Part shown: piece by piece, positions 14,946 to 37,741 of the stretch
How the letters are laid out: every line of letters starts with the position of its first letter
How positions within the stretch are numbered: position 1 is the first letter of the stretch
Source: Longimicrobiales bacterium
Lineage (GTDB): Bacteria; Gemmatimonadota; Gemmatimonadetes; Longimicrobiales; Gaopeijiaceae
Length of the DNA: 64,000 nucleotides
Direction of reading: 5' to 3'
Assembly: GCA_963664435.2 (NCBI GenBank)
Contig: CAXXKM010000003.1
Span: 1,600,001 to 1,664,000, forward strand
The notes under the pieces: generated by a model
The model's database searches: none
What the model was told of the DNA's origin: nothing
The model's input: only the letters and a program-made list of their open reading frames with translations
Position numbers and translations under genes: made by a program

Positions 14946-15581
14946 CTAGTCGAGGCGCCCCACCAGCACGCCCTCCTCGCTCGCCAGCACCTTGAGGTCC
15001 CGGCTGCGAAAGGCCTGCTCGCCATCGGCGGAGGCACCCAGGAGGACGATGCGCCCGGCTGGCGCCAGGCATCGCGCAGCGTCGTCGAGCAGAGGTTCGG
15101 CCCACGACCCCGCCAGGGCGATGCCGGCCAGCGATCCGTCGCGCAGCGGCAGCCTTTGGGATGCCATGAGCCAGCTCGCGCCGCCAGGCGGCCGGAAGTC
15201 GCACCGCGGGGCCAGCGCAACCACCTCCACGTCGGGAAGCAGGGACGCAAGCCCGGACGCCCGGCCGGCCAGGTTCCCGGCGACCGCGATCAGCGCGGGA
15301 CCCCGGGCCACGCCGATCAGCGCGGCAAGGCGCAGCGTCTCGGGTGCGGAGGCGTCTGCCGTCGGCGGAGGGACGCCGCGCGCGCGTCGATGGGTCCGGG
15401 AGCGCGGAGGATGACGAAGATCCGCGACGCCGCGCGCGACCGGATAGAGCACGCGGCAGTTGGAGCAGCCCAGAAAGCCGTCGACCACGCTTCCCTCCTC
15501 CACCTGGTCCGCACGCAGAACCAGGCCGAAGCCCGGGCCGCAACGCGGACAGATCAGACGCTCGGTGAGCTGCGGATTCAC
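14946..15581 (-). CDS. Trm112-like zinc-knuckle protein with degenerate methyltransferase-like C-terminal domain
   Basis: LICPRCG...LGCSNC..YPVARGVADL; LPLRDGSLAGI...ARCLAPAGRIV. Confidence 0.7.
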   Translation of the reverse strand: MNPQLTERLICPRCGPGFGLVLRADQVEEGSVVDGFLGCSNCRVLYPVARGVADLRHPPRSRTHRRARGVPPPTADASAPETLRLAALIGVARGPALIAVAGNLAGRASGLASLLPDVEVVALAPRCDFRPPGGASWLMASQRLPLRDGSLAGIALAGSWAEPLLDDAARCLAPAGRIVLLGASADGEQAFRSRDLKVLASEEGVLVGRLD

Positions 15582-15617
15582 GTCTTCAGCGGCGGCGCCG
15601 GACGAGGTTCGCCCACG

Positions 15618-16349
15618 TCACGCGCGTTCGATCTGCAGAAGGGGGATCTGGACGGTGGGGGGGCGGGTGGCCAGAAACAGGATGGCCTCGGCTACCTGCC
15701 GTGCTTCGAGCATGGCGTCGCGCGGCGGAAGCCCGGGGTGCAGCTCCGGGTCGATGGCATCCCAGAGCGGAGTGTCGCACGCCCCCGGCTCGACCAGCGA
15801 GGTCCGCACGCCCGTTCCGCGGGTTTCCTCCCGCAGAACCTCGTGCATGCCGCGCAGCCCGAACTTGGAGGCGGAGTAGGCGCTGTTGTCGGGAAACGCG
15901 GTACGTCCCGCCACCGAACCCACCAGCACGATCTGCCCTCGGTTCCGCCGCAGCATGTCGGGGAGGAAGGCCCGTGCCAGGAGAAAGGCGCTTCGCAGGT
16001 TGACGCTCAGGCTGCGGTCCAGATCCGCCACGCCCGTCTGGTGAAGGGGGGCGAGGGAAAACACCCCTGCCGCGTGGACGAAGATGTCGGGGGAGCCGCC
16101 CAGGCGCGCCGACACCTCCGCCGACATGGCCTCCAGCTGGCGAGCGTCGGCGAGATCCGCCGGAAGGTCGTGCGCGCCGGTCTCGCCTGCGATGCGGGCG
16201 AGCAGGTCGCGCCGCCGCGCCACCAGAAAGACCTCCGCCCCGGCCGACGCCAGCAGGCGCGCGCATGCGGCGCCGATCCCGCTGGTCGCGCCCGTCACCA
16301 GCGCGGAGCAGCCGGCCAGGACGGCCGATCGCCCGCGGGGTTCTCCCAT
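15618..16349 (-). CDS. Short-chain dehydrogenase/reductase (sepiapterin reductase candidate)
   Basis: TGATSGIG, VGSVAG, YSASK; TGATG coupling to the folE stop. Confidence 0.88.
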   Translation of the reverse strand: MGEPRGRSAVLAGCSALVTGATSGIGAACARLLASAGAEVFLVARRRDLLARIAGETGAHDLPADLADARQLEAMSAEVSARLGGSPDIFVHAAGVFSLAPLHQTGVADLDRSLSVNLRSAFLLARAFLPDMLRRNRGQIVLVGSVAGRTAFPDNSAYSASKFGLRGMHEVLREETRGTGVRTSLVEPGACDTPLWDAIDPELHPGLPPRDAMLEARQVAEAILFLATRPPTVQIPLLQIERA

Positions 16350-17005
16350 CAGTCCAGTTTCCCCGACTTCAGCGCCAGGGCGAGGAACTCCTCGCGGGTC
16401 CGTGGATCCTCCAGAAACAACCCCCGCATCGCCGACGTGAGGGTCGAGGAGTTCTGCTGTTCGACGCCCCGCATCATCATGCACAGGTGGTGCGCCTCGA
16501 CGATCACGCCCACGCCCTGCGGGCGCACCACATCCCACAGCCCCTGGGCGATCTGCTCCGTCAGCCTCTCCTGCACCTGGAGCCGGCGGGCGAAGACGTT
16601 CACGATGCGCGCCGTCTTGGAAAGTCCGACGATGCGCCCGTTCGGGATGTAGGCCACGTGGACCTTGCCGAAGAATGGCAGGAGGTGGTGTTCGCACAGG
16701 GAATACATCTCGATGTTGCGCACGAGCACCATGTTCTGGTGGCTCTCCTGGAAGAGAGCTCCGGTCATCACCTCTTCGGGCGTCTGCGCGTACCCGCTGG
16801 TGAACAGTTCCATCGAGCGCGCGACCCGGGTCGGCGTGCGCACCAGCCCCTGCCTGTCGGGATCCTCGCCGAGTCGGCGGATGATCTCGGCCACCAGCTC
16901 CTCGAACGAGGCCTGTGCCAGCGAAGCCGGGCGGGACCCGGATGCTCCCTCGCGATCCGGGCCGGGGCCGTTCCCCCGCAGGAGTTCCACTTCGCGGCTA
17001 CTCAC
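16349..17005 (-). CDS. folE: GTP cyclohydrolase I (type IA)
   Basis: [34 protein letters not shown]. Confidence 0.97.
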
Positions 17006-17414
17006 CCGAGTACTCCGCGCGGTTCCTCGGCGTCTCCCACAGGACCAGCTTCACCAGCTCCACCTCCGGGGGCATCCGTTCGCGCAGCCTGTGCCACATC
17101 GCCACGACCACGTTCTCCGTGGTGGGAATCGTCCCCTCCAGCCAGTCGACATCCAGGTTCAGGTTGGCGTGGTCCACCTCGGCGACCACCCGTTCCTGCA
17201 CCAGATCGCGCAACCGCTTCAGGTCCAGGACGTAACCCGTGTCAGGGTCGACCGGTCCCTCCACGGTCACGTCCAGCTCGTAGTTGTGGCCGTGCCAGTT
17301 GGGATTGGCGCAACTGCGGAACACCTCCTGGTTGCGCTCGTCGGACCACTCGGGCCGGTGCAGCCGGTGGGCGGCGCAGAAGTGCATCCTCCGCGTGATC
17401 CTTACCCGCGGCAT
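16998..17414 (-). CDS. 6-pyruvoyl-tetrahydropterin synthase, CX5HGH (PTPS-II) type
   Basis: [34 protein letters not shown]. Confidence 0.92.
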
Positions 17415-22404: not shown

Positions 22405-22434
22405 AGTTTACCGAAACAGGGGACGACCGGTCAA
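22405..22434 (-). promoter_or_regulatory. Sigma70-type promoter for rpmE2
   Basis: TTGACC-N18-TAAACT. Confidence 0.5.
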
Positions 22435-22985
22435 CGCCCGGGACCCTGTCCCACCGGCGGCGTCAGCCTGAAGCCGCCCAGGACTTCATCATCGGGGGGG
22501 AGCTCGTCGGGACCGGCGGGATAGCCGTTCAACTCCAGGATGTACGCCATGACGTCCACGTAGGTCTGGCGCGGCAGCCCTCCGGGGTTGTCGTCGGGCA
22601 TCGTGCGGCGCAGCTCCCGGTACAGATCGCGGGCGGTGCGGCGCGCCCAGACGTCCGTGAATACCGGGCCCTTGAACTCGCTCGTATAGTGGCAATCCGA
22701 GCACACCTGGCGAAACGCGCGCTGGCCGCGGCGCGCCTGCGGCTCCGTGTAGAAGGCGGCCGGAGCCGGAGCTGCGTCGCGGGACGCCGCCCCTTCCGGC
22801 ACTGCCGCGTCGTTGGCAGCAGTCTGCGTCGCCGGTACGCCTTGCGCGGCCGGAGGTGCGTCGCCCGGGGCCGGCGTCCCGGCCGTCGCGGACCCGGGAA
22901 CCGGAGGCGAGGGCGGCGTTGCCGCCGGTGCTGCACACCCCACGATCAGCCATGCGACGGCGGCGAACGACATGCGTGATGACAT
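22431..22985 (-). CDS. Monoheme cytochrome c lipoprotein
   Basis: Lipobox IVGC, Pro/Ala linker, YTEPQARRG...CSDCH, distal TMP motif, [11 protein letters not shown]. Confidence 0.88.
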
Positions 22986-22993
22986 CGGCGGCA

Positions 22994-24736
22994 CTACTCC
23001 TCCGTAACCTCGAAGACGAACATCATTCCCGCGTGCAGGTGCTCCGCGATGTGACAATGAAGCATCCACGATCCCGGATTGGACATCTCCACCAGCAGAT
23101 CCATGGTGGAGCCGACCGGAAGGATGGTGGTGTCCTTCCACACCAGGTTGGTGTTGGGGATGCCGTCGCGCTCGGTCACCAGGAAGCGCTGCCCGTGAAT
23201 GTGGATGGGATGGTTCATGGGATGAAACGACTCGGGGTCGTTGAACACCCGGATCTTCACTACGTCGCCCACGCGAAAGCGCCAGTCGATGTCCCCGTTC
23301 TCCCGCCCGCTGGCCGGTTCCCGCAGGATCCAGGTCACCTGGGTGCCGGTCGAGAGCCAGTTCATCATCGGCATGCCGTCGTTCCACTCGACCGGCGGCA
23401 CGTAGAAGGTGTCCGCCTCCATCGACGCCACGATCGGCACCGGAAGATCCCGTACCCGGACCGTGGTCACCAGCTCAAGGTCCACCGGCTTGCCCAGCAG
23501 GGCGCGGAAGGGCTCGATGTCCTCGATCACGTCGCGGTTCTCGCGCAGTTCATCGAAGGCCTGCGCGACCTCATCGTCGATTTCGGGACCGTTCACGCTC
23601 ACGACCGCGAGCGTGTCCTCGTGCGGGTAGAAGGTGCCGCGGAAATGGTTCACGGCCTGGATCGTGTTGGTGATGCCGACCTCGCCGGCCTCCGGGAAGC
23701 GCACGTCCACCACATAGCGTTCGGCGGGCGCGATGACCACGCTCTCCACCCAGGTCTCACGCTCGAACTTGCCCACGTCGGACGCGATCAGCTTCACGCG
23801 CGCGCTCCCGAAGCGGACGTTGAAGGTGCGGGTGTTGGCGACGTTGGTCAGGTAGAAGCGGACCACCTCGCCGGTGCGCGCCTCGATGCGGTGGTCGTCG
23901 ACCCCGTTGGTCAGCATCACGGTGCCGAAGCGTCCCATGAGCGCGTGCGTCGGCGCTTCCTCGCCCCAGGGGATGAGGCCCTGGTCGTCGATGAGGATGT
24001 CGTCGAGCAGGAGCAGCTCTTCGCGGTGGGAGGGGCCGTAGTAGTCCGGGTTCGGCGGCACGACCAGCAGGTTCCCGTAGAGACCCAGGTCCTGCTGGAC
24101 ATCCTCGCGCATGTGCGGATGGTACCAGAACATGCCGGCGTCGGGAACGTCGATCTCGTAGGTGAAGGTCTCGCCTTCGGCGATGGGGTCCTGGGTGAGC
24201 CCGGCGACGCCGTCGAAGCGGTTCTCCAGCCGTATCCCGTGCCAGTGGACCGTCGTGGGCAGCTGAATGCGGTTGGTCACACGCACCATGATGCGCGAGC
24301 CCCGGTCCGCCTGGATGAGAGGACCCGGATACTGGCCGTCATATCCGAGCATGGCGTAGTCGCGCCCGCCGATCGTGCGCCGGACCACGGACACGTCCAT
24401 GTCGAGGGTGTCCCCATCGGCCACCACGACCCGCCGGCCGGGTTCGGCCGCCGGAAACATCGCCGGATCCATGCCGTCGCCGATCAGGAAGGGACGCACG
24501 GGCGGGAGCGCGTTCTCGAGCCCCGGGACCATCGGCATGCTCATGGACATCGGCGGCATGCGCCATCCAGCGGCCTCGCCGTGATCGCCATGGCCCATCA
24601 TCCGGTGTTCCTGGGCCGCGAGGGCACCCGGCAGGGCGGCGACCACGCCCGGCAGAGCGGTCCCGAAGCCCGGAAGGGCAGCGACGAGAAGGATTCGCAG
24701 TCCGTGGAGAGGGCGCACCGGCGTCGGCTGTCTCAA
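22994..24736 (-). CDS. Three-domain multicopper oxidase MCO1 (start TTG 24736 or GTG 24718)
   Basis: HWHG, WYHPH, HPIHIHG, HCHIAEHLHAGM; signal peptide and His/Met-rich N-terminus. Confidence 0.95.
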   Translation of the reverse strand: MRQPTPVRPLHGLRILLVAALPGFGTALPGVVAALPGALAAQEHRMMGHGDHGEAAGWRMPPMSMSMPMVPGLENALPPVRPFLIGDGMDPAMFPAAEPGRRVVVADGDTLDMDVSVVRRTIGGRDYAMLGYDGQYPGPLIQADRGSRIMVRVTNRIQLPTTVHWHGIRLENRFDGVAGLTQDPIAEGETFTYEIDVPDAGMFWYHPHMREDVQQDLGLYGNLLVVPPNPDYYGPSHREELLLLDDILIDDQGLIPWGEEAPTHALMGRFGTVMLTNGVDDHRIEARTGEVVRFYLTNVANTRTFNVRFGSARVKLIASDVGKFERETWVESVVIAPAERYVVDVRFPEAGEVGITNTIQAVNHFRGTFYPHEDTLAVVSVNGPEIDDEVAQAFDELRENRDVIEDIEPFRALLGKPVDLELVTTVRVRDLPVPIVASMEADTFYVPPVEWNDGMPMMNWLSTGTQVTWILREPASGRENGDIDWRFRVGDVVKIRVFNDPESFHPMNHPIHIHGQRFLVTERDGIPNTNLVWKDTTILPVGSTMDLLVEMSNPGSWMLHCHIAEHLHAGMMFVFEVTEE

Positions 24737-25341
24737 TCGTAGCCGTAGGCGGCGCAGTTCTCCTGTTCGAAGGCGCCGTGCCCCGCCATGGTGTGCATCT
24801 GCCCGCTGCGGGACATGCCGCGCAACGCGACGGGGCCCGTCCACATGGCCGCCTCGGGATCGTCCGCGGGTTCGAGCGTGACCACGAGCAGGAACTTGTT
24901 CCAGCGGGCCCGGCCACGAAGCGGCCCGCCGTCCGCAAGCGGACCGATGCGCTCGACCTGGTCCAGGTCCGGCGTCGTCAGCCATCCCACATAGACGCCT
25001 TCGCGGGGCGCCATCAGGCGCTCCACCGAGAGCCACACGTCGAGAAGGTAGCTGCCGTCCTCCGCCAGGGTGACTCCGAACGGCGAGTCCGCGAAGGTCA
25101 CTTCGCCCAGGCCCGCCGCGAGCCCGGTGCCCGGGAGCCTGCGGGTGCTCACTACGGGGAAGGCGTAGTAGGCGGGCGCCTCGACCGGGGCGGCGGATGC
25201 GGGCAGTGGCGCGTGGACCGCGTTGCCCGGCCCGAAGGCCTCCGGCAACGCGCATGTCCCCGGAGGAATCCCCGGTGAGGGATCCCCGCTGCCCGGGGCC
25301 AGGCCTGCCAGCAGCGCGAGGGTCAGCATCTCGCCCGTCAT
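24733..25341 (-). CDS. Exported hypothetical protein homologous to the N-terminal domain of MCO2
   Basis: Shares PFGVT, YVxWxTTPxLD, R(I/L)GP, NKFL and RGxSxSxxM motifs with 28570-29200. Confidence 0.8.
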   Translation of the reverse strand: MTGEMLTLALLAGLAPGSGDPSPGIPPGTCALPEAFGPGNAVHAPLPASAAPVEAPAYYAFPVVSTRRLPGTGLAAGLGEVTFADSPFGVTLAEDGSYLLDVWLSVERLMAPREGVYVGWLTTPDLDQVERIGPLADGGPLRGRARWNKFLLVVTLEPADDPEAAMWTGPVALRGMSRSGQMHTMAGHGAFEQENCAAYGYD

Positions 25342-25345
25342 CGGA

Positions 25346-26710
25346 TCACGGCTCCTGACTTACCGGGCGCGGACGGACCTCGTCCCACTTCTGGACGCTG
25401 GAGATGTCCGGCATGCCCCAGTCCTCGCCGTTCCAGCCGTTGAACCCCTCCATGCGGAAGGTCCAGAAACCGGTGCTCATGTCGCTCACGACGATGAGCC
25501 CGTCCTCGTTGCGCACGTCCACCCCGAACGCCCCGTTGAACACCGGATTGCGGAAGTCGCGGTCGTTCGGCGAGCCGACGTACGTGTCGTAGTAGCCCAC
25601 GGTGACCGGGTTGGTTGGATCCATGAGGCTGAAGATCTGGAGCCCGTCGAGATACCCGGAGACGAAGACGTAGGGCCAGCGCACCTCGTGGTTGTGCACC
25701 AGGTTCTGCCAGTCCGCGGTCCAGGCCGAGATGGGCCGGCTGATGTTCGTCTGCGTGCCCTCGAGCGCGGGCTGGAGGTCGAAGATGCGCAGGGGCGCGT
25801 ACTGGTACTCGGTCTCGGCGATCACGTAACGCCCGTCCGGGCTGGGCGTGAAGGTGTGGCCCGAGCGGACGCCGCTGATGCCCGTCATCGTGACCACGAG
25901 CTCCGGGTTGTCCAGGTCGCTGATGTTGTAGACGTAGTAGCCGCCGGTGCCGCCGCCGTAGAAGCGGTCCTGCCCGGTGTCGGGATGATACGCGGCGTAG
26001 AAGTCGTGATAGCCGCGCCCGCTGCCCTGCCCGAGCGGGGACTCGGGAACCGGAATCCGTCCCGCCAGGGCATCCGAGGGATCGCCGTCGACGGCCTTCG
26101 CCATGTCGTAGGCGTGGGCGAACGGGCCGCGCACCGTGCTCAGGAGCAGCACGCGGCCGTCGGAATGCTTGTAGATGAAGATGTTGTGGAAGCCCCCCGG
26201 CAACTCGGGCTCCCGGATGCGCGCCACCTCGCGCACGGTGGTGGGATCGGGAAGCCCGGTGACATCCAGGATGACCGCGCCCAGGTCGGGGTTTGGGCCG
26301 CCCTGGCCGAACTGGAGGGACTGCACCACGTAGTAGCGCCCGTCGAGCTTGAAGTACTTGACGTCCATTCCGCCGGTGCGCTGGTGCAGGTCCTGGTTCT
26401 CGATGCGCCAGCGGTAGATCACCTCCGGCTTCTCGGGATCCTCCAGGTTGATGATGTCGGTGCCCTTGGGACCGACCTCGCCGTAGACCATGCGCGCGAC
26501 GTACGCGTAGGGACGGTGCATTTCCTGCTCGAGCTCGATGTCGGCGATGCTGAGCTGCGGGCCGAGGGGAACGTGGCCGAGCACGTCCATGTTGTCGCTG
26601 CCCGGTTTCATCGGCGTCCACTGGCCGGCTGCGGGCGCGACCGCCAGGGCGAGCGCCAGAGCGGCGGCACCGGTCTTCAGGATGGTCGAATGGACGACGC
26701 TGGCTCGCAT
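25346..26710 (-). CDS. Secreted LVIVD-repeat beta-propeller with His motifs
   Basis: Signal peptide ending AAGQ; repeats VILDVTGLPDP, VYNISDLDNP, IFSLMDPTNPVTVGYYDT; His motifs FHN, YHD, GHT, VHNH. Confidence 0.82.
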   Translation of the reverse strand: MRASVVHSTILKTGAAALALALAVAPAAGQWTPMKPGSDNMDVLGHVPLGPQLSIADIELEQEMHRPYAYVARMVYGEVGPKGTDIINLEDPEKPEVIYRWRIENQDLHQRTGGMDVKYFKLDGRYYVVQSLQFGQGGPNPDLGAVILDVTGLPDPTTVREVARIREPELPGGFHNIFIYKHSDGRVLLLSTVRGPFAHAYDMAKAVDGDPSDALAGRIPVPESPLGQGSGRGYHDFYAAYHPDTGQDRFYGGGTGGYYVYNISDLDNPELVVTMTGISGVRSGHTFTPSPDGRYVIAETEYQYAPLRIFDLQPALEGTQTNISRPISAWTADWQNLVHNHEVRWPYVFVSGYLDGLQIFSLMDPTNPVTVGYYDTYVGSPNDRDFRNPVFNGAFGVDVRNEDGLIVVSDMSTGFWTFRMEGFNGWNGEDWGMPDISSVQKWDEVRPRPVSQEP

Positions 26711-26868
26711 GGCGAACTCCTTCGGCAAGATGGAACAGGTCTCTCCGGGCCGCGCGGTGCCCGACCGGTCATTGTAACGTGATTCGGACCTCGCGCGCAC
26801 GGGCTGGTGACATATGCCCTCGCCCGCGGCGTGAAGGCGGTGGCCCGGGGCTCGGGTTCGCAACCGAT

Positions 26869-28449
26869 TCACGCCGGCAGGAGGCCCGGCCGGCCGGCTT
26901 CGACCACGAAGGAAGCGCGCGTCTCGACCGGGGCCCCGGGCTCGGTGACGTAGGGGACGATCCGGTAGTCCGCGACCATGCGATCCGGGGTCGCGGCGCA
27001 GCGAACGTAGCCCCGCTGGGCATTGAAGAAGTGGATGTGCGGGTTGCGGGCAAGCGTGTCGCCGGTCCCGGGACGCGTGTCCTGCCCGTCTCCGCCGGAG
27101 CTGATGGACGTGCCTACCAGCTCGGCACCCACGATGCCGGACGACGGGTTGCGCGGGTCCGCCTTAAGGTCCGCCGCCCAGTTGCTGTGGATGTCGCCGG
27201 TGAGGACCACCGGGTTCGCCGGCCGGGTCCGGTCCAGGAAGGAGAGCAGCCGGTCCTGCGCTTCCGGGTAGCCGTCCCAGCGGTCCATCGACACGGTGGG
27301 TTCACCGTCCCGGGAGCCCTCCAGCCGGGCGATCATGACCTGGTTGGCGAGCACGTTCCAGCGGCTCTCCGACTCCGCCAGGCCGCCGAACAGCCAATCC
27401 TCCTGCTCCGTCCCCAGCATGGTGCGGCCGGGCTGGAGCGCCTCCGGGCACAGCGGCCCATTGGTGTCGCCGCACGCCTGGTCGGAGCGGTACTGGCGGC
27501 TGTCCAGCACGTGGAGGTCGGCCAGGCCGCCGAAGCGCAGCCGCCGGTAGACCTGGATGTCCGGCCCGCTGGGCATCGATGAACGCCGCACGGGCATGAA
27601 CTCGTAGAAGGCCTGGAAGGCGGCCGTGCGGCGCAGCCGGAGTTGCGCGGGCGACTGGTCGTCCTCGGCCACGTCGGACGCCCAGTTGTTGTCCACCTCG
27701 TGGTCGTCGAAAGTAGTCACCCACGGGAACGCCGCGTGGGCGGCCTGCAGGTCGGGGTCGGACCTGTAGAGGAGATAGCGGGCGCGGTAGTCGTCGAGCG
27801 TGAGCACTTCGCCCGCTTCGTGGGCGCGCACCAGGTTGTCGCCGTATCCCACCTCGTAGATGTAGTCGCCGAGGTGGAAGACCAGATCCAGTTCCTCGTC
27901 GGCCATGTGGCGGTAGGCCGTGTAATAGCCGTGCTCGTAGTTCTGACACGATGCGAAGGCGAAGCGCAGCCGGTCGGCGGGCGTGCCGGGCGCGGGCAGG
28001 GTGCGGGTGCGGCCGACCGGGCTCTGGTCGCCTCCCGTCATGAAGCGATACCAGTACGGCCGGTCAGGCTCGAGTCCCTCCACCTCCACGTGGACCGAGT
28101 GGCCCAGTTCGGGGACCGCCAGCTGGGTGCCCTGGCGAACCACGCGCGAGAAGCTCTCGTCGGCCGCCACCTCCCAGCGCACCGCAACCGGTTCGGCCGC
28201 CAGACCCGCGTCGCGCATCCCTTCCGCCGACAGGCGCGTCCACAGTACCACCCCCCCGGCGTCCGGATCGCCGGACGCGACCCCCGACGGGAAGGGAGAG
28301 ACGGCCAGGCGTGCCGTGCGGTCGCCCCGGCAGGCGCCCAGCGAGCCCAGCGCGACGATGCCGGCCACATCGCGGCCGATCCTCACGAAGTCGCGCCGCG
28401 ACATGCGGGCGGCGGTCAGGTCGTACCAGTGCGCTTCCCCAATCTTCAC
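26869..28449 (-). CDS. phoD: Alkaline phosphatase D family, Tat lipoprotein (alternative start ATG 28404)
   Basis: SRRDF Tat motif, LGAC, GVASGDP, GDYIYE, DDHEV, WDGY, TGDIH. Confidence 0.95.
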   Translation of the reverse strand: MKIGEAHWYDLTAARMSRRDFVRIGRDVAGIVALGSLGACRGDRTARLAVSPFPSGVASGDPDAGGVVLWTRLSAEGMRDAGLAAEPVAVRWEVAADESFSRVVRQGTQLAVPELGHSVHVEVEGLEPDRPYWYRFMTGGDQSPVGRTRTLPAPGTPADRLRFAFASCQNYEHGYYTAYRHMADEELDLVFHLGDYIYEVGYGDNLVRAHEAGEVLTLDDYRARYLLYRSDPDLQAAHAAFPWVTTFDDHEVDNNWASDVAEDDQSPAQLRLRRTAAFQAFYEFMPVRRSSMPSGPDIQVYRRLRFGGLADLHVLDSRQYRSDQACGDTNGPLCPEALQPGRTMLGTEQEDWLFGGLAESESRWNVLANQVMIARLEGSRDGEPTVSMDRWDGYPEAQDRLLSFLDRTRPANPVVLTGDIHSNWAADLKADPRNPSSGIVGAELVGTSISSGGDGQDTRPGTGDTLARNPHIHFFNAQRGYVRCAATPDRMVADYRIVPYVTEPGAPVETRASFVVEAGRPGLLPA

Positions 28450-28569
28450 GGCCGTCTCCCGGGGCGTGGGTCGTCATCCGTTCGCGTGCGCGGCGGGCGC
28501 CCATATTATGGAACATTCGCCCGGGAACCCAAACCGGAACTACGAGTGCACCTGGAGGCGCGGGACAAG

Positions 28570-30822
28570 ATGCGCGACCTGTTGCAGGCGGCGGTGACCA
28601 CGGTGGCTCTGGCCGGCTTCCTGCCGGGATGCGCCGCGGCGCTCGCGCCCCAGCAGGCCGACCTCTCCAGCCTCTGTTCCGCGGGAGCCCGCGGCGCCCG
28701 GCTGGCCGGCGGCGCTGCCTCGCCCGTGGGACAGACGCCCACGGATCTCTTCTGCTTCGACCTGCACGCTACCTCCGCCGCGCGGGAGGCGTGGGGCGTG
28801 ATGGAACTGGGCAGGGTGCCCGGCCCCTTCGGGGTGACCGTGACCGCAGAGGGACGTCACGTCCACAACCTGACCGCATGGCTCCGCGGGCTTCCGGACC
28901 CGGCAGACCTCGGCCCCTACGAGTCGTACGTCGCCTGGGCCACCACGCCCACGCTGGATCCGGTGATCCGCCTCGGACCGGTGGGCAACGGTCGCAATCG
29001 CCTCGGCCGCATCTCCTTCAACAAGTTCCTGATCCTGATCACCGCGGAGACCTCCGCCGACGCCACGGAGCGCGAGGGGCGCCTGGTGATGCGCGGCCGC
29101 TCCCCCAGCAGCCTGATGGAGGCCCACGACCTGCTGGCCCAGGCTCCCGAGGCACTCCGCGCTCCGGCTGGAATGTCCCATGACCACGCCGGCGCCACGG
29201 ACGGATCCGGTTGGAGCCTGCCCCCCATGTACCCCGGCCTGCCGATGCTGCCGGGCATCATGGCGCTCCGCCCGCGGGTGGACGCCTACCTGCCCGAAGC
29301 TCCGGCGCCGGAGGACCTCCCGCCGGTCCGGCCGCGCCAGCTGGTGCGGCTGGGCGACGGCGGCACACTCGACCTCGAGGCCGGTTTCGTCCGCCGCGAC
29401 ATCGGCGGCCGCGCGGTGGTCATGCTGGCCTTCAACGGGCAGCAGCCGGGCCCTCTCCTCCAGGTGCCCGAGAGCGCGACCATCTTCGTCAACTTCACCA
29501 ACCGCACCCCGCTGCCGACGGCCATCCACTGGCACGGCATCCGCCTTGACAACCGCTTCGACGGCGTGCCGGGAGTCACCCAGGACCCGGTTCAGCCCGG
29601 CGAGACCTTCCGCTACCAGATCCATTTCCCGGACGCCGGCATCTACTGGTACCACCCCCATCACCGCGAGGACATCCAGCAGGAGCTGGGCCTCTACGGA
29701 AACCTGCTGGTTGACTCGCCGCGCCCCGACTACTACGGCCCGGCGAACCAGGAAGAGGTGCTGATGCTGGACGACCTCCTGCTGGGAGAGGACGGCGTCG
29801 TGCCCTTCGGCGACAGCTCGAGCAACTACGCGCTCATGGGTCGCTTCGGGAACATCCTGCTGATCAACGGCGAGCCGGATTACACGCTGCGCGCCCGCCG
29901 GGGCGAGGTTGTGCGCTTCTTCCTCACCAACGTGTCCAACACCCGCACCTTCAACCTGTCGTTCTCACGGGCGGATCAGGCCGACGTGGCCGGCCTCGAC
30001 GCTCCGGTTCGCACCCTGCCCGTCAAGGTGGTGGCCTCCGACGTGGGCAGGTTCGAACGGGAGGTGATGGCCGAGAGCGTCGTCATCTCCCCGGCCGAGC
30101 GCTACGTCGTCGAGGTGCGCTTCGACGAGGCCGGCGAGTTCGTGCTCTCCAACCGGGTGCAGGCCATCAGTCACCGCGAAGGCGTCTTCTTCAGCGAGTC
30201 GCGGGTGATGGGCAGGGTCGTCGTCGACCCCGAGCCCACCCCGCTCGATCACGCGCACGCCTTCGCGACCATGCGCGAGAACGCGGATGTCACGCGGGAC
30301 ATCGACGCCTACCGCGAGCACTTCGACCGCCCCGTCGACCATTCGCTCGACCTCACCCTCGAAGTCGAGGACCTGCCGCGCCCCGTCGAGCAGTCGATGC
30401 TCTACGACTGGGCATACTTCAACCCGGTGGAGTGGAGCGGCACGATGCCGGTCATGAACTGGGCGAGCGACGGCGGCCAGGCGCGCTGGATCCTGCGCGA
30501 TCCCGGGAGCGGACGCGAGAACATGGATATCCGCTGGCGCTTCCGCGTGGGAGACGTGGTCAGGATCCGGCTGCACAACGACCGCAATGCCTTCCACGCC
30601 ATGCAGCACCCGCTCCACATCCACGGCCAGCGCTTCCTGGTGCTCTCGCAGAACGGCGTCCCGAACGACAACCTCGTGTGGAAGGACACCGTGCTGCTAC
30701 CGACCGGCTCAACCACCGACATCCTGCTCGAGCTCTCCAACCCCGGGCGCTGGATGGTGCACTGCCACATCGCGGAGCACCTCGAGACGGGGATGAAGTT
30801 CGTCTTCGAGGTCGAGCCGTGA
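28570..30822 (+). CDS. Multicopper oxidase MCO2 lipoprotein with fused N-terminal accessory domain
   Basis: Lipobox LPGC; HWHG, WYHPH, HPLHIHG, HCHIAEHLETGM. Confidence 0.95.
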   Translation: MRDLLQAAVTTVALAGFLPGCAAALAPQQADLSSLCSAGARGARLAGGAASPVGQTPTDLFCFDLHATSAAREAWGVMELGRVPGPFGVTVTAEGRHVHNLTAWLRGLPDPADLGPYESYVAWATTPTLDPVIRLGPVGNGRNRLGRISFNKFLILITAETSADATEREGRLVMRGRSPSSLMEAHDLLAQAPEALRAPAGMSHDHAGATDGSGWSLPPMYPGLPMLPGIMALRPRVDAYLPEAPAPEDLPPVRPRQLVRLGDGGTLDLEAGFVRRDIGGRAVVMLAFNGQQPGPLLQVPESATIFVNFTNRTPLPTAIHWHGIRLDNRFDGVPGVTQDPVQPGETFRYQIHFPDAGIYWYHPHHREDIQQELGLYGNLLVDSPRPDYYGPANQEEVLMLDDLLLGEDGVVPFGDSSSNYALMGRFGNILLINGEPDYTLRARRGEVVRFFLTNVSNTRTFNLSFSRADQADVAGLDAPVRTLPVKVVASDVGRFEREVMAESVVISPAERYVVEVRFDEAGEFVLSNRVQAISHREGVFFSESRVMGRVVVDPEPTPLDHAHAFATMRENADVTRDIDAYREHFDRPVDHSLDLTLEVEDLPRPVEQSMLYDWAYFNPVEWSGTMPVMNWASDGGQARWILRDPGSGRENMDIRWRFRVGDVVRIRLHNDRNAFHAMQHPLHIHGQRFLVLSQNGVPNDNLVWKDTVLLPTGSTTDILLELSNPGRWMVHCHIAEHLETGMKFVFEVEP

Positions 30823-30957: not shown

Positions 30958-32463
30958 ATGAGAGATCCACACGAGCGGCATGTCCCATTCGCGAACACGC
31001 TTCTGCCCGTCGCCCTCGTGGCGCTGGCCGCGGCGTGCGAGGCGCCCGCACAGCAGGAGCCGGAAGCACCGGCGCCGGAATCCCCCGCAGCCCAACCGGC
31101 AGCGGATGTCGCCGGGCAGTTCCCCGACCTGGTCGCCGTGGACGCCGATCCGGTCGCGCTCACGGGAGTGAAGCTGATCGACGGCACCGGGGAGCCGGCG
31201 CGCGACGGGCAGACCGTGGTGATCGCGGACGGACGCGTCGCGGCGGTCGGGAACGACGGGGAGGTCGAGGTGCCCGACGGCGCGGAGGTTCTCGACCTGT
31301 CCGGGCACACGGTGATGCCCGCGCTCATCGGTCTGCACAACCACAGCTTCTACACGGCGGCCGGCGGCCGGTCGGCCCAGCTCTCCTTCAGCGCGCCCCG
31401 CCTTTACCTGGCCTCCGGACTGACCACCATCCGCACCACGGGTGCCCGCTCGCCCTACGAGGAGATCAATCTTCGTGACGAAATCGACGCCGGGCTTGCC
31501 GTCGGACCGACCATCTTCGTGACCGGACCCTACCTGACCGGGCAGCAGGGGAGCCGGACCATGGCGCAGCTGGACGGGCCGGAGTCGGCGCGTCGGGTGG
31601 TGCGCTACTGGTCGGAGGAGGGCGTGAGCTGGTTCAAGGCGTACACCTGGATCAGCAGGGCCGAGTTGGGCGCGGCGATCGAGGAAGCCCACGCCCACGG
31701 CATAAACGTCACTGCGCATCTTTGCTCAGTGGGTTACAGAGAGGCGGTGGCGCTCGGGATCGACAATCTGGAGCACGGCCTCTTCGCCAACAGCGAATAC
31801 GATCCCTCCAAGCAGCCGGACGAGTGTCCGCCCGGGTTCCGCAACACCTATGGGGACCTGGACGTCAACGGTCCGGAGGTGCAGCAGACCTTCCGCGACA
31901 TGGTCGACAACGATGTGTCGATGACCTCGACGCTCGCGGTCTACGAGATCTCCGTTCCGGGCCGCGGCCCTCTCGATCCGCGGGTCTGGGAGGTACTGGC
32001 GCCCGAGGTGGCCGCCGACGTCCGGGCGCAGTTCGACCGGATCCGCGCCGCCGATCCCGGGTCCGGGATGGGCCTCTCCCCGGAGCTGCTGCGGGTGGCG
32101 ATGGACTACGAGTACGCCTTCGTGCAGGCGGGAGGCCTGCTGGCGGCGGGCGTCGATCCGACCGGCTACGGCGCGGCGCCTCCGGGGTTGGGCGACCAGC
32201 GCAACTTCGAACTGCTGCTGGAGGCCGGCTTCACCGCACCCGAGGTGGTGGAGATCATGAGCGCGAACGGCGCCCGCGTGCTGGAGATCTACGACGACGT
32301 GGGAAGCGTCGAGCCCGGCAAGCGCGCGGATCTCGTGGTCGTGGAGGGCGATGTGGAAGCGGACGGGCACATCCGCAACACGAGCATCGTCTTCCGGCAC
32401 GGCATCGGCTGGGACAGCGATGCGCTCATTGAATCGGTGCGAGGCCTGATAGGGGTCCGCTGA
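30958..32463 (+). CDS. Amidohydrolase family lipoprotein
   Basis: SD GGAGGAGG; AAAC; GLHNH, FKAY, AHL, EHG, GVD, GSVEPGKRADLV. Confidence 0.9.
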   Translation: MRDPHERHVPFANTLLPVALVALAAACEAPAQQEPEAPAPESPAAQPAADVAGQFPDLVAVDADPVALTGVKLIDGTGEPARDGQTVVIADGRVAAVGNDGEVEVPDGAEVLDLSGHTVMPALIGLHNHSFYTAAGGRSAQLSFSAPRLYLASGLTTIRTTGARSPYEEINLRDEIDAGLAVGPTIFVTGPYLTGQQGSRTMAQLDGPESARRVVRYWSEEGVSWFKAYTWISRAELGAAIEEAHAHGINVTAHLCSVGYREAVALGIDNLEHGLFANSEYDPSKQPDECPPGFRNTYGDLDVNGPEVQQTFRDMVDNDVSMTSTLAVYEISVPGRGPLDPRVWEVLAPEVAADVRAQFDRIRAADPGSGMGLSPELLRVAMDYEYAFVQAGGLLAAGVDPTGYGAAPPGLGDQRNFELLLEAGFTAPEVVEIMSANGARVLEIYDDVGSVEPGKRADLVVVEGDVEADGHIRNTSIVFRHGIGWDSDALIESVRGLIGVR

Positions 32464-35603: not shown

Positions 35604-37523
35604 TCAGACCTCCTCCAGCTTCTCCTCCAGCAGCTGATAGGCGATGGGCAGGAAGTCGCGCTCGCTGATGATTCCGATCAGCTTGCCGTTCTTTTCCACC
35701 GGGAGGGCGGAGACGCGCTTCTCGCGCATGATCCCGATCGCTTCCAGGGTCGATGTCTCGGGTTCCACGGTGACCACGTCGGAGGCCATGATGGTCCGGA
35801 TCGGATCGGACTCCGTAGTGCCCGGGGCTCCGGACGCGGCGACCATGCGCAGGATCGCCCGGTACGACACCAGGCCCACCAGCGTGTGGTCGTCGTTCTC
35901 CACCAGCACGTGGCGGATGTTCTGCTTGTCCATCAGGAAGGCGGCCAGCTCGATGGGCTCGTCCTCGTGCACGGTGAAGAGGTCGGTCACCATGTACTGC
36001 TCGACCTTCAGGTAGTTGTAGCGCCAACCGCCCGCCTCCCAGATCTCGGCCGGCTCCCAGGTGTGCGCGGGACGCGGATCCCGCTGGCGATGGGCCATGC
36101 CGGAGGTGAGCGCGGTCATGCGCTCGGCAACCGATCCTTTCCCCGTCATGCTGCGCAGAGACTTCAGCTGCCACGTCGCACCCGTCATGCCGGACTCGAC
36201 GCGACCCTGGACAATGCCCAGATAGTGGTCGATCTCGGTCTGCTCGATCCCGAGTTCCTCGAGCCCGCTCCGCGACAGTGGAAGCAGTTCGCCGAGCAGG
36301 AGATCGCGGGCGCTCACGGCCTCTCCGGCGAGCCAGTGGAAACCCGCATCCAGGCCCCTGCGGCTCGCGGCCACGAAGTTGGACTTGGCGTAGTCGAAGT
36401 CGACCCGGCTGGCGACGTCCCCGTATTCCCGGGCGCCCCCGAGCACCAGACCGATCCAGAAGGCCGAGTTGGCCACCTCGTCCATGATCGTCGGACCGGA
36501 GGGCAGCACTCGACACTCGATGCGCAGGTGCGGCTTGCCCTCGCTGATCCCGTAGCAGGGGCGATTCCAGCGGTACACCGTGCCGTTGTGCAGCTGCAGC
36601 GCGGGGAGCCGGGGCACGCCGCCCCGCGCAAGCACCTCGAAGGGATCCTCCGTCACCTCTCCGGTGAGGAGCACGCGGAAGCGGGCGATGTCGTCCTCGA
36701 AGAGCTCGGTCACCGACTTGTTGATCCAGCGCTCGCCGAAGCGCACGCGCGTGCTGGTCTGACGCAGGTGGGGCGTCGCGCTGCGCGTGTCCATCGACTG
36801 CTCGAAGAGCGCGATGCGGGTCTCGTTCCAGAGGCGCTTGCCGAAGAGAAGCGGGGAATTGACGCACGCCGCCAGTACGGGCGGGGTCACCAGCTGGGCC
36901 ACGTTGTAGAAGCTCGGGAACTCCTCCGCGGAAACCTGAAGATGCACCTGGTAGCTGGTGTTGCACGCCTCCACCATCACCGAGTCGTGCTCGACGAAGA
37001 TCTCGTCGGTCCCCTCGATGCGCAGCCGGTACGACGATCCGCCGCGGATACGGTTGAGCGCATCGTTGAGGGCGTAGTAGCGGGGCATGGGCGTGATGCT
37101 GTCCATGGACAGGTCGGACTTGCCCAGGGTAGGCAGGATGCCGCACAGCACGACGTCCGCCCCCTGCCGTTGCGCGGCGGCGCGCGCCTGTGCGATGCGC
37201 TCCTCGATCTCGACCTCCATGGCCGAGAAGCAGCGGCCGGTGAGCAGCTTGGGCTGGAGGTTGGCCTCCAGGTTGAAGAGCGCCAGCTCGGTGGTGAACG
37301 TGTCCGCCGGAAGATGCTCGAGCACGTCGAGCGCGACGGTGGCCGGGCGCCAGCCCTGGTCCACCAGGAAGAACTCCTGCTCCACGCCGAAGCGGCGCAC
37401 CCCGGACTCGATCATGCCCTGGGAGAGCATTCTCTCGAGGGCCTTGAGGTCCCTCAGAATCGCCTTGGTGAAGGCGCGGATCTCCGCCGAGTCCCGTCCT
37501 GTGTCTGCATCCAGGCGTCCCAT
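35604..37523 (-). CDS. Glutamate-cysteine ligase family 2 (GCS2) protein with C-terminal CBS pair
   Basis: FGVEQEFFLVD, TELALFNLE, SYQVHLQ, YRWNR, RIECR; CBS motifs IRHVLV, LVGLVS, IGIISERD. Confidence 0.9.
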   Translation of the reverse strand: MGRLDADTGRDSAEIRAFTKAILRDLKALERMLSQGMIESGVRRFGVEQEFFLVDQGWRPATVALDVLEHLPADTFTTELALFNLEANLQPKLLTGRCFSAMEVEIEERIAQARAAAQRQGADVVLCGILPTLGKSDLSMDSITPMPRYYALNDALNRIRGGSSYRLRIEGTDEIFVEHDSVMVEACNTSYQVHLQVSAEEFPSFYNVAQLVTPPVLAACVNSPLLFGKRLWNETRIALFEQSMDTRSATPHLRQTSTRVRFGERWINKSVTELFEDDIARFRVLLTGEVTEDPFEVLARGGVPRLPALQLHNGTVYRWNRPCYGISEGKPHLRIECRVLPSGPTIMDEVANSAFWIGLVLGGAREYGDVASRVDFDYAKSNFVAASRRGLDAGFHWLAGEAVSARDLLLGELLPLSRSGLEELGIEQTEIDHYLGIVQGRVESGMTGATWQLKSLRSMTGKGSVAERMTALTSGMAHRQRDPRPAHTWEPAEIWEAGGWRYNYLKVEQYMVTDLFTVHEDEPIELAAFLMDKQNIRHVLVENDDHTLVGLVSYRAILRMVAASGAPGTTESDPIRTIMASDVVTVEPETSTLEAIGIMREKRVSALPVEKNGKLIGIISERDFLPIAYQLLEEKLEEV

Positions 37524-37741
37524 TGTGCCTCGTCCGGTTGGGCGGGTGGAACCGTTGACGGGCGTCCGCGCCGGGCGGGCGCCCATGGGCGGAGTTTATC
37601 CAAGACCGTCCTGCAAAGCGAGTGGCCGGACCACCGACCTGCCACGCGGCTTCGTTCAGCCGAACCCGAGCCTTTGCCGGAGGCCGGGACAGGTGTGGCC
37701 GAGCCCCCGCCGGGGTCGGTCGCCGCCTGGTGGTTCGTTCG

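Follow-up and report, generated by a model that had tools for sequence, protein, structure and literature searches.

A small domain, encoded separately or fused, that accompanies one clade of multicopper oxidases together with type-specific partner enzymes

The known accessory proteins of bacterial multicopper oxidases (MCOs) are few, MnxEF and CutF being the examples closest to the case presented here. In Bacillus sp. PL-12, the oxidase MnxG is described as part of the Mnx complex, together with the small accessory subunits MnxE and MnxF (PMC5622069), and in cutFOG of Rhodobacter capsulatus the small gene upstream of the MCO gene, which encodes CutF, is described as needed for the activity of the oxidase (PMC8456105). 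An arrangement of this kind is present in a 64,000-nucleotide stretch of DNA (the window) of a Longimicrobiales bacterium of the phylum Gemmatimonadota (assembly GCA_963664435.2, contig CAXXKM010000003.1, positions 1,600,001 to 1,664,000 of the forward strand). The window contains two modules: the one on the minus strand is composed of the genes for a PhoD phosphatase, a beta-propeller, a small protein that we call X, an oxidase (MCO1) and a cytochrome c, and the one on the plus strand of those for a second oxidase (MCO2), which carries an X domain at its N-terminus, and an amidohydrolase. X and the X domain of MCO2 are the only X-like sequences in the genome. Compared by description, X differs from MnxE and MnxF in that it is a single barrel, probably of the copper/zinc superoxide dismutase (Cu/Zn SOD) type, which is often fused to the oxidase, whereas MnxE and MnxF are described as lacking similarity to characterised proteins (PMC5622069); it differs from CutF, again by description only, in that its barrel has no conserved copper-binding motif. 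The results presented below make a physical partnership between X and the oxidase very probable, a conclusion that is much safer than any reading of the mechanism.

The earlier note on this DNA had proposed that the stand-alone protein upstream of MCO1 and the N-terminal domain of MCO2 are split and fused versions of the same domain, and this pair is real. The motifs quoted for the stand-alone copy are found in the open reading frame (ORF) of X, and BLASTP aligns X with residues 74-183 of MCO2 with 41/113 identities (36%) and an E value of 6e-14; the local score of 161 is far above those of 1000 shuffled sequences (mean 36, maximum 72). The two oxidases themselves are 53% identical over 562 aa, and MCO2 extends to position 30822, beyond position 29200 at which the region described in that note ended. 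The SPFG, NK and G-x-S-x-S motifs of X are retained in the fused copies, in which the column of MCO2 residue C36 is a Cys in 18/20 cases. All 36 aligned X homologues end no more than 1-3 residues from the same C..xGY tail, and stand-alone X is present in 41 of 151 genomes of the phylum; therefore, the stop codon after X is not a sequencing error. At three loci (L046, L133 and L136) and in two proteins (P0169 and P0226), the reading frames of X and the MCO either overlap or seem to be connected through frameshifts, and these cases look like sequencing errors or broken fusions. Phylogenetic trees disagree on whether the X-MCO pair originated by fusion or by fission: FastTree nests the split forms within the fused ones, IQ-TREE without the trait columns nests the fused forms within the split ones, and a split clade is not rejected by the approximately unbiased (AU) test (p 0.31).

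X is linked to one particular clade of MCOs. In our survey of the 151 genomes of the phylum, X is found at 104 places in 69 genomes, and MCOs close to MCO1 are found at 103 places in the same 69 genomes, with a cut of E 1e-60 that was chosen once the matches were seen to leave a gap from 1e-65 to 1e-47; a further 45 genomes contain distant MCOs only, and no X. At 54 of the 104 places X is in frame with an MCO, at 38 it lies directly upstream, at nine it lies within 15 kb and at three it is on another contig. Inspection of the 38 upstream places showed that two are fusions, one of them frameshifted, and two of the three cases on another contig are likely to be fusions cut by contig ends. The linkage is also seen when loci are picked by their MCO: X is present in 79 of the best 80 of 578 candidate loci, a few of which overlap the 151 genomes (36 fused, 41 separate and 2 with both forms), and the single locus without X begins 178 bases from the locus edge, which is a contig end. 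The clade is present in 17/251 genomes from the phylum to which an Acidobacteriota record belongs and in 36/151 from the class of a Rhodothermales record, and X lies within 1.5 kb of the MCO at 28/30 loci of the Acidobacteriota set, two of which are the same gene, and at 30/30 loci of the Rhodothermales set. The idea put forward in the earlier note that X is an MCO partner domain is strongly supported by this co-occurrence, which had been suggested there as a check, and by the predicted complex and the matching clade-specific surface of the MCO described below. A bacterial MCO is generally regarded as an enzyme of a single chain; in this widespread clade, X seems to be a permanent subunit. When "laccases" of the split type are produced from metagenomes in the absence of X, they may be incomplete.

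Some loci contain additional genes near X and the MCO. A PIN-like toxin-antitoxin-type gene pair lies between the two at L031:6691-7331 and L033:4544-15208; at the latter, X and the MCO are about 8 kb apart, and the X tail is present a second time as a short copy close to the MCO. At L036:1977-2663, and likewise at L038, the gene directly 3' of the MCO encodes a cupredoxin-like protein that contains a carboxypeptidase-regulatory-like domain.

Besides X and the MCO there is a third component, which the earlier note had missed: a partner enzyme that depends on the type of X. The beta-propeller is present in 41/41 genomes with stand-alone X, in 1/26 genomes with only fused X and in 0/82 genomes without X; among the best 80 MCO-picked loci it lies beside 35/41 separate X genes and 0/36 fused ones. 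Where the MCO is separated by 8-11 kb or lies on another contig (L033, L037, L042 and L043), X is still found beside the propeller. Conversely, the amidohydrolase is encoded at 31/36 fused loci of the same best 80 and at 13/13 in the Acidobacteriota set. It is present in 51/51 fused genomes at E 1e-190 or better, and members of its family occur in 22 other genomes, two of which have contig-broken fusions and 20 of which score 1e-187 or weaker, with a profile that was built from fusion-linked copies and favours such copies. Two genomes (G125 and G041) have 10 propeller copies and three (G124, G145 and G146) have 7-8 amidohydrolase copies, with 1-3 MCOs of the clade each, as would be expected for clients of one service enzyme. 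Through these two type-specific partners, the function of two uncharacterised families of secreted enzymes could be approached directly. A HupE/UreJ-like gene and a gene of ~450 aa without a Pfam match recur upstream of the propeller in the window's own family (L032, L033, L034 and L035), which may point to a link with metal uptake.

How X may interact with the oxidase is suggested by structure prediction. The X-MCO1 complex obtained a prediction score of 0.88, against 0.00 for the best control; at least 84% of the contacts agreed between runs, and the predicted local distance difference test score (pLDDT) of the partner was at least 79. The mark used for this score is reached by 116/157 solved complexes and 2/215 mismatched pairs, counts that are only roughly valid for the alignments made here. 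In these models X would bind MCO1 via the conserved SPFG hairpin. The predicted contacts on X are residues 52-59, 82-83, 85-92, 94-98 (the SPFG hairpin), 148-149 and 178-183, and those on MCO1 include residues 330-335, 358-360, 367-371, 444-449, 501-502 and 537-545.

The predicted docking site coincides with the features that separate the X-linked MCOs from a sister clade. An MCO of this sister clade on a Natrinema plasmid (e.g. WP_226778714.1) is 39% identical over its full length, and no X was found in the Natrinema locus or in the whole plasmid record, the other sister-clade lineages being covered at their loci only. The sister set consists of the 120 best relatives listed for the Natrinema MCO, the named ones belonging to haloarchaea, Thermoplasmatota, DPANN and Patescibacteria. 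In 104 of the 120, the hairpin is 16-20 residues long and domain 3 contains a loop rich in Met and His (mean 7.6 Met+His); in the 16 others the hairpin has 27 residues, and these 16 group inside the X-linked enzymes. The 27-residue hairpin is common to 40/40 X-linked MCOs, together with a segment poor in Met and His (mean 1.5 in the split and 1.8 in the fused type), and these MCOs form one branch, with a support of 1.0 (FastTree) or 97 (IQ-TREE, trait columns removed). A search of metagenomes with the sister-clade alignment yielded 80 loci, in which the hairpin and X go together: X is present at 14/16 loci with the 27-residue hairpin, the other two being cut at the contig start, and no X, propeller or amidohydrolase is present at the 64 loci without it, 41 of which have at least 1.5 kb upstream. 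The two clades share the HPMxH and WxDxM motifs. With its Met-rich loop replaced by a folded domain, the X-linked clade provides a natural experiment on the role of the Met-rich domain of CueO. The recurrent neighbours of the MCO at the 64 sister-clade loci include HMA-DsbD-cupredoxin (5/64), DUF302 (5) and DUF305 (3) genes. In Patescibacteria and DPANN, this CueO-like MCO clade with its Met/His-rich loop (P0278-P0397, L212-L291) is often found among genes of the copper-resistance type.

X itself matches no Pfam or NCBIfam family at cut-off, and its homologues (618 in the 90% set, with 297 representatives at 50% identity) include no solved relative according to sequence searches; a match of the X profile to PDB 1l0q was a short repeat match and was discarded. 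A word-index search for longer X homologues found none; since fused forms are common, this reflects the limit of its sensitivity. No description of the X domain or of the gene trio was found in the literature covered, which consisted mostly of open-access papers. In one X-like Atlas cluster, 20% of the members carry PF26349 (YoqH), which is only a lead to a named family. From 131 X sequences, AlphaFold2 predicts a confident beta-barrel (pLDDT 88.6). The top matches of this model in the VIA structural search are Cu/Zn SOD-type chains, the best with Z 8.6, a root-mean-square deviation of 3.0 and 101 aligned residues, followed by Z 8.3 and 8.2; ten of the first 12 rows are SOD1-type chains and one other is domain II of the copper chaperone for superoxide dismutase (CCS), whose Z values to the model are 7.1 and 6.7, where unrelated sandwiches reach 7.0 and below. 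The SOD folds are only 10-16% identical to X, with a top Z only about 1.6 above unrelated beta-sandwiches, and Foldseek gave no significant match with the X model, so that we regard a Cu/Zn SOD-type barrel as likely, not certain. P19/Tp34/FtrA headed the Foldseek list without reaching significance (E about 0.02, TM about 0.3) and were set aside.

With this predicted fold, X would have the Greek-key barrel in common with Cu/Zn SOD, CCS domain II and CHRD domains, the last of which are described as SOD-like barrels without metal ligands (PMC13382577). X lacks the SOD ligands, and no His-, Met- or Cys-rich column is present before residue 176; its predicted partner is an MCO. Nor does it have the hallmarks of CCS, which are an Atx1-like domain I and a CxC motif in domain III: a single Cys is conserved in the tail, and neither a CxC motif nor an HMA domain is present. 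Conserved residues of the metal-binding kind are confined to the tail, where 131 homologues have H188 in 126, C196 in 102, M182 in 90 and H183 in 79. This tail could indicate that X is a copper chaperone, which would bind copper, load the MCO as it matures and leave, as CCS does for SOD1 and CutF may do for CutO. The presence of CCS domain II among the fold matches, the conservation of H188 and C196, the position of residues 178-183 inside the predicted interface and the small upstream gene described as needed for CutO activity in Rhodobacter (PMC8456105) agree with such a role. However, the tail motif with H188 has no counterpart in the fused copies, in which one aligned column is His in 10/20; the barrel has no conserved ligand; a transient chaperone is not easily reconciled with X being permanently fused in about half of all cases; and the sister clade matures without X, likewise mostly without a twin-arginine translocation (Tat) motif. 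We therefore consider a chaperone decidedly unlikely. The suggestion in the earlier note that His and Met residues following both copies could handle copper is the same idea and has weak support; the His/Met stretch after the MCO2 domain (MSHDH...) is not part of X, but the N-terminal arm of the MCO itself, which is also present in MCO1.

A loose resemblance of X to the C-terminal domain of RskA had also been noticed. This resemblance is probably real, with the C-terminal half of X aligning with RskA_C (YxxW ... VTxE ... GP), but it is remote only. Neither X nor the MCO2 domain matches RskA_C (PF10099) over the gathering score; weak matches are found in 12/131 X homologues (best E 1.6e-4), whereas 119/131 have no match at E 0.1, and hhalign gives a probability of 45% (E 2.2e-4, 68 columns) and the Atlas models, which are predicted, a TM-score of 0.45. 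X has an additional N-terminal SPFG hairpin, which is the predicted contact with the MCO, and it lacks an anti-sigma context. Taken at face value, the similarity would make X an RskA-type sensor domain that signals to an extracytoplasmic function (ECF) sigma factor, which we find hardly credible: X has no conserved N-terminal anti-sigma domain, no sigma gene recurs among its neighbours, the RskA_C matches over cut-off in the searched genomes are located elsewhere than X, and X is fused to an enzyme. By the features tested, X is not a member of RskA, SOD or CCS.

As for the oxidases, MCO1 and MCO2 both contain the three cupredoxin domains (PF07732, PF00394 and PF07731) over cut-off. MCO1 has a complete type 1 (T1) copper site (H509, C561, H566 and M571) as well as the type 2 and type 3 (T2/T3) motifs, and HWHG, WYHPH, HPxHxH and HCHxxxHxxxxM are found in both enzymes and are invariant or nearly so in 40 X-linked MCOs. 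They share the three domains and the complete T1/T2/T3 ligands with the CueO-type cuprous oxidases (E. coli CueO and the Thermus thermophilus MCO 2xu9); a motif at the apparent position of the Cu5 ligands just before the T1 His, with Met/His-rich segments near it, also recalls these enzymes. The Cu5 ligands of CueO are reported to be M355, D360, D439 and M441, and loss of D439 and M441 to abolish cuprous oxidase activity (PMC11494321). In the X-linked MCOs, H505, M507, M455 and M458 are invariant in 40/40, and, judging from the sequence, they probably form a fifth metal site like Cu5. The HxMxH motif before the T1 His is present in 39/40 X-linked and 103/104 sister MCOs, and the MxxM pair is mostly kept in both clades. 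The N-terminal arm is rich in His and Met (mean M+H 9.4 in the split, 6.0 in the fused and 5.2 in the sister type). By the cut-off of the NCBIfam model for CueO, NF008205 (525 bits), MCO1 and MCO2 are MCOs but not CueO, scoring 140 and 130 bits. They differ from CueO in that the Met-rich insertion over T1 is lost (segment mean M+H 1.5-1.8), a separately folded domain being predicted to dock there, in that they lack a Tat motif, and in that they are linked to a propeller or an amidohydrolase and not to copper export genes. By a crude regular expression, the Tat motif is present in 0/39 X-linked and 2/104 sister MCOs; because the sister clade, which has no X, is also mostly without it, export by the Sec pathway was discarded as the reason for the presence of X.

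The apparently retained fifth site, the His/Met-rich arm, the company of HMA-DsbD-cupredoxin, DUF302 and DUF305 genes in the sister clade, and the fact that MCO1 and MCO2 are by motif the only MCOs of the genome would all be compatible with a plain copper-detoxifying oxidase like CueO, for which X would be a stabilising cap only and the partner enzymes passengers of the operon. Such a plain oxidase is very improbable, given the strict, type-specific linkage to two different enzymes in three phyla, the loss of the Met-rich loop and the absence of copper genes at X loci.

The nature of the two partners bears on what the oxidase may do. The amidohydrolase matches PF01979 over cut-off and its HxH/K/H/H/D set corresponds to the full ligand pattern of a binuclear site. 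The propeller has invariant His, Asp and Glu residues, and its best Foldseek match, which is also its best sequence match, is Sb-PTE (5hrm; E 7e-11, 14% identity, TM 0.6). Both partners are thus hydrolase-like, and they could be non-homologous stand-ins for one another, since phosphotriesterases have been described on TIM-barrel and propeller folds (PMC11277490). They might then act hydrolytically on an ester, amide or phosphoester, with the phenol, arylamine or thiol set free being oxidised by the X-capped MCO in the manner of a laccase; X would still be a docked subunit, but one that shapes the substrate entrance. In line with this, CueO without its Met-rich domain is reported to oxidise 2,2'-azino-bis(3-ethylbenzothiazoline-6-sulfonic acid) (ABTS) about tenfold more (PMC11494321), and no copper genes recur nearby. 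The four invariant residues of the putative fifth site, the remoteness of the Sb-PTE match (only generic propellers fill the top 50 of the wide VIA search) and the lack of any transporter, regulator or catabolic gene that recurs at X loci argue against a coupling of hydrolysis to organic oxidation, which we hold to be unlikely.

We tentatively favour the view that X is a dedicated subunit of one MCO clade that couples a metal-oxidising enzyme to a partner metalloenzyme, and put its chances at a little under even. The substrate of the MCO would be a reduced metal ion, Cu(I) being the likeliest, which would be oxidised at the putative retained CueO-like fifth site, and the electrons would pass via T1 to O2. 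X would dock where the free copper-collecting loop of the sister clade sat and take the place of that loop; we propose that the oxidase would consequently stop scavenging metal broadly and serve its partner. The partner would be a secreted enzyme with a His-rich metal site, whose metal, in the oxidised state, MCO-X would supply or maintain, and the type-specific C-terminal part of X (in the split type, the tail with His188) could be the point of contact or hand-over. A more specific form of this view, in which MCO-X is a periplasmic metal-loading machine and X the SOD-fold adaptor through which an oxidase derived from CueO hands oxidised metal directly to its clients, seems unlikely to us. If true, however, a single MCO-X would have as many as ten client paralogues, and the histidine-ring propeller and the amidohydrolase subfamily would be redox-metal (copper) enzymes with new chemistry.

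Several points weigh against the coupling of a metal oxidase to a partner metalloenzyme by X. The genomes counted are related and are not independent samples, which is why we give counts and not p-values. Conservation of X is no higher at the predicted interface than elsewhere (0.56 vs 0.50, p 0.16), and the closeness of X to the fifth site is one that sequence positions suggest. The amidohydrolase family occurs, with lower scores, in 20 genomes that show no sign of a fused MCO, and binuclear amidohydrolases usually use Zn, Mn or Co, for which no oxidase is needed. No copper-homeostasis gene recurs at X loci; it should be noted that the ORF callers miss some genes (e.g. PhoD), so that the neighbour counts are lower bounds. 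The putative equivalence of H505 and M507 to D439 and M441 of CueO, with His replacing Asp, is drawn from motif position only and depends on the numbering of the CueO T1 His. Finally, the Cu5 site of CueO is reported to speed the oxidation of an organic substrate as well (PMC11494321), so that keeping a Cu5-like site is no proof of a metal substrate.

The features of the two modules are listed in Table 1.

Table 1. Coordinates of the two modules and their features (positions in the window).
Feature	Positions	Strand	Remarks
Monoheme cytochrome c after MCO1	22431..22985	-	In 2/120 loci by BLAST with the window protein; local, not conserved
MCO1, three-domain multicopper oxidase	22994..24736	-	580 aa
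MCO1 domain 3 Met/His-poor segment, residues 427-449	23390..23458	-	Replaces the Met/His-rich loop of the sister clade
MCO1 clade-specific 27-residue hairpin, residues 351-377	23606..23686	-	H364, G367, F369; predicted main docking site of X
Stand-alone X	24733..25341	-	202 aa; probably secreted, with an N-terminus judged hydrophobic by eye
Tail of stand-alone X, residues 182-202	24736..24798	-	M182, H183, M185, H188, C196; split type only
X barrel, residues 56-183	24793..25176	-	Predicted SOD-type Greek-key barrel (AlphaFold2 pLDDT 88.6)
Secreted LVIVD/choice-of-anchor-B-like beta-propeller	25346..26710	-	454 aa; invariant His/Asp/Glu; split-type partner
PhoD-like phosphatase between the two modules	26869..28449	-	Pfam; in 3/120 loci; local neighbour, not a conserved part
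MCO2, fused X-MCO	28570..30822	+	750 aa; ATG start at 28570
X domain of MCO2, residues 36-186	28675..29127	+	Cys pair C36, C62, typical of fused copies
MCO2 27-residue docking hairpin (putative)	30136..30216	+	Counterpart of the MCO1 hairpin by sequence comparison
Secreted amidohydrolase	30958..32463	+	501 aa; invariant H127, H129, K227, H254, H273, D400; fused-type partner

The stop codon of X (TGA) overlaps the TTG start of MCO1, and the GC content at third codon positions of the stand-alone X ORF is 0.88. Close relatives of the MCO1 locus (93-94% identity) are labelled Longimicrobiales or Gemmatimonadetes, and some close X homologues carry the NCBI name Gammaproteobacteria. A scan of the region for promoters and terminators gave results at chance level. 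Four RNA libraries, from three studies, contain contigs of relatives that span most of the region, in some cases across gene junctions; since contigs cannot show transcription, they were not counted as evidence. The signal region of MCO2 (28570-28635) ends in LPGC, which we take to be a possible lipoprotein signal, and which is not general among the fused copies. Elsewhere in the window, a 660-aa ORF on the minus strand (35604-37586), presumably glutamate-cysteine-ligase-like, seems by eye to end in a pair of CBS domains, and a cluster on the same strand (14946-17414) contains, likewise read by eye, 6-pyruvoyl-tetrahydropterin-synthase-like, GTP cyclohydrolase I-like, short-chain dehydrogenase and Trm112-like/methyltransferase ORFs.

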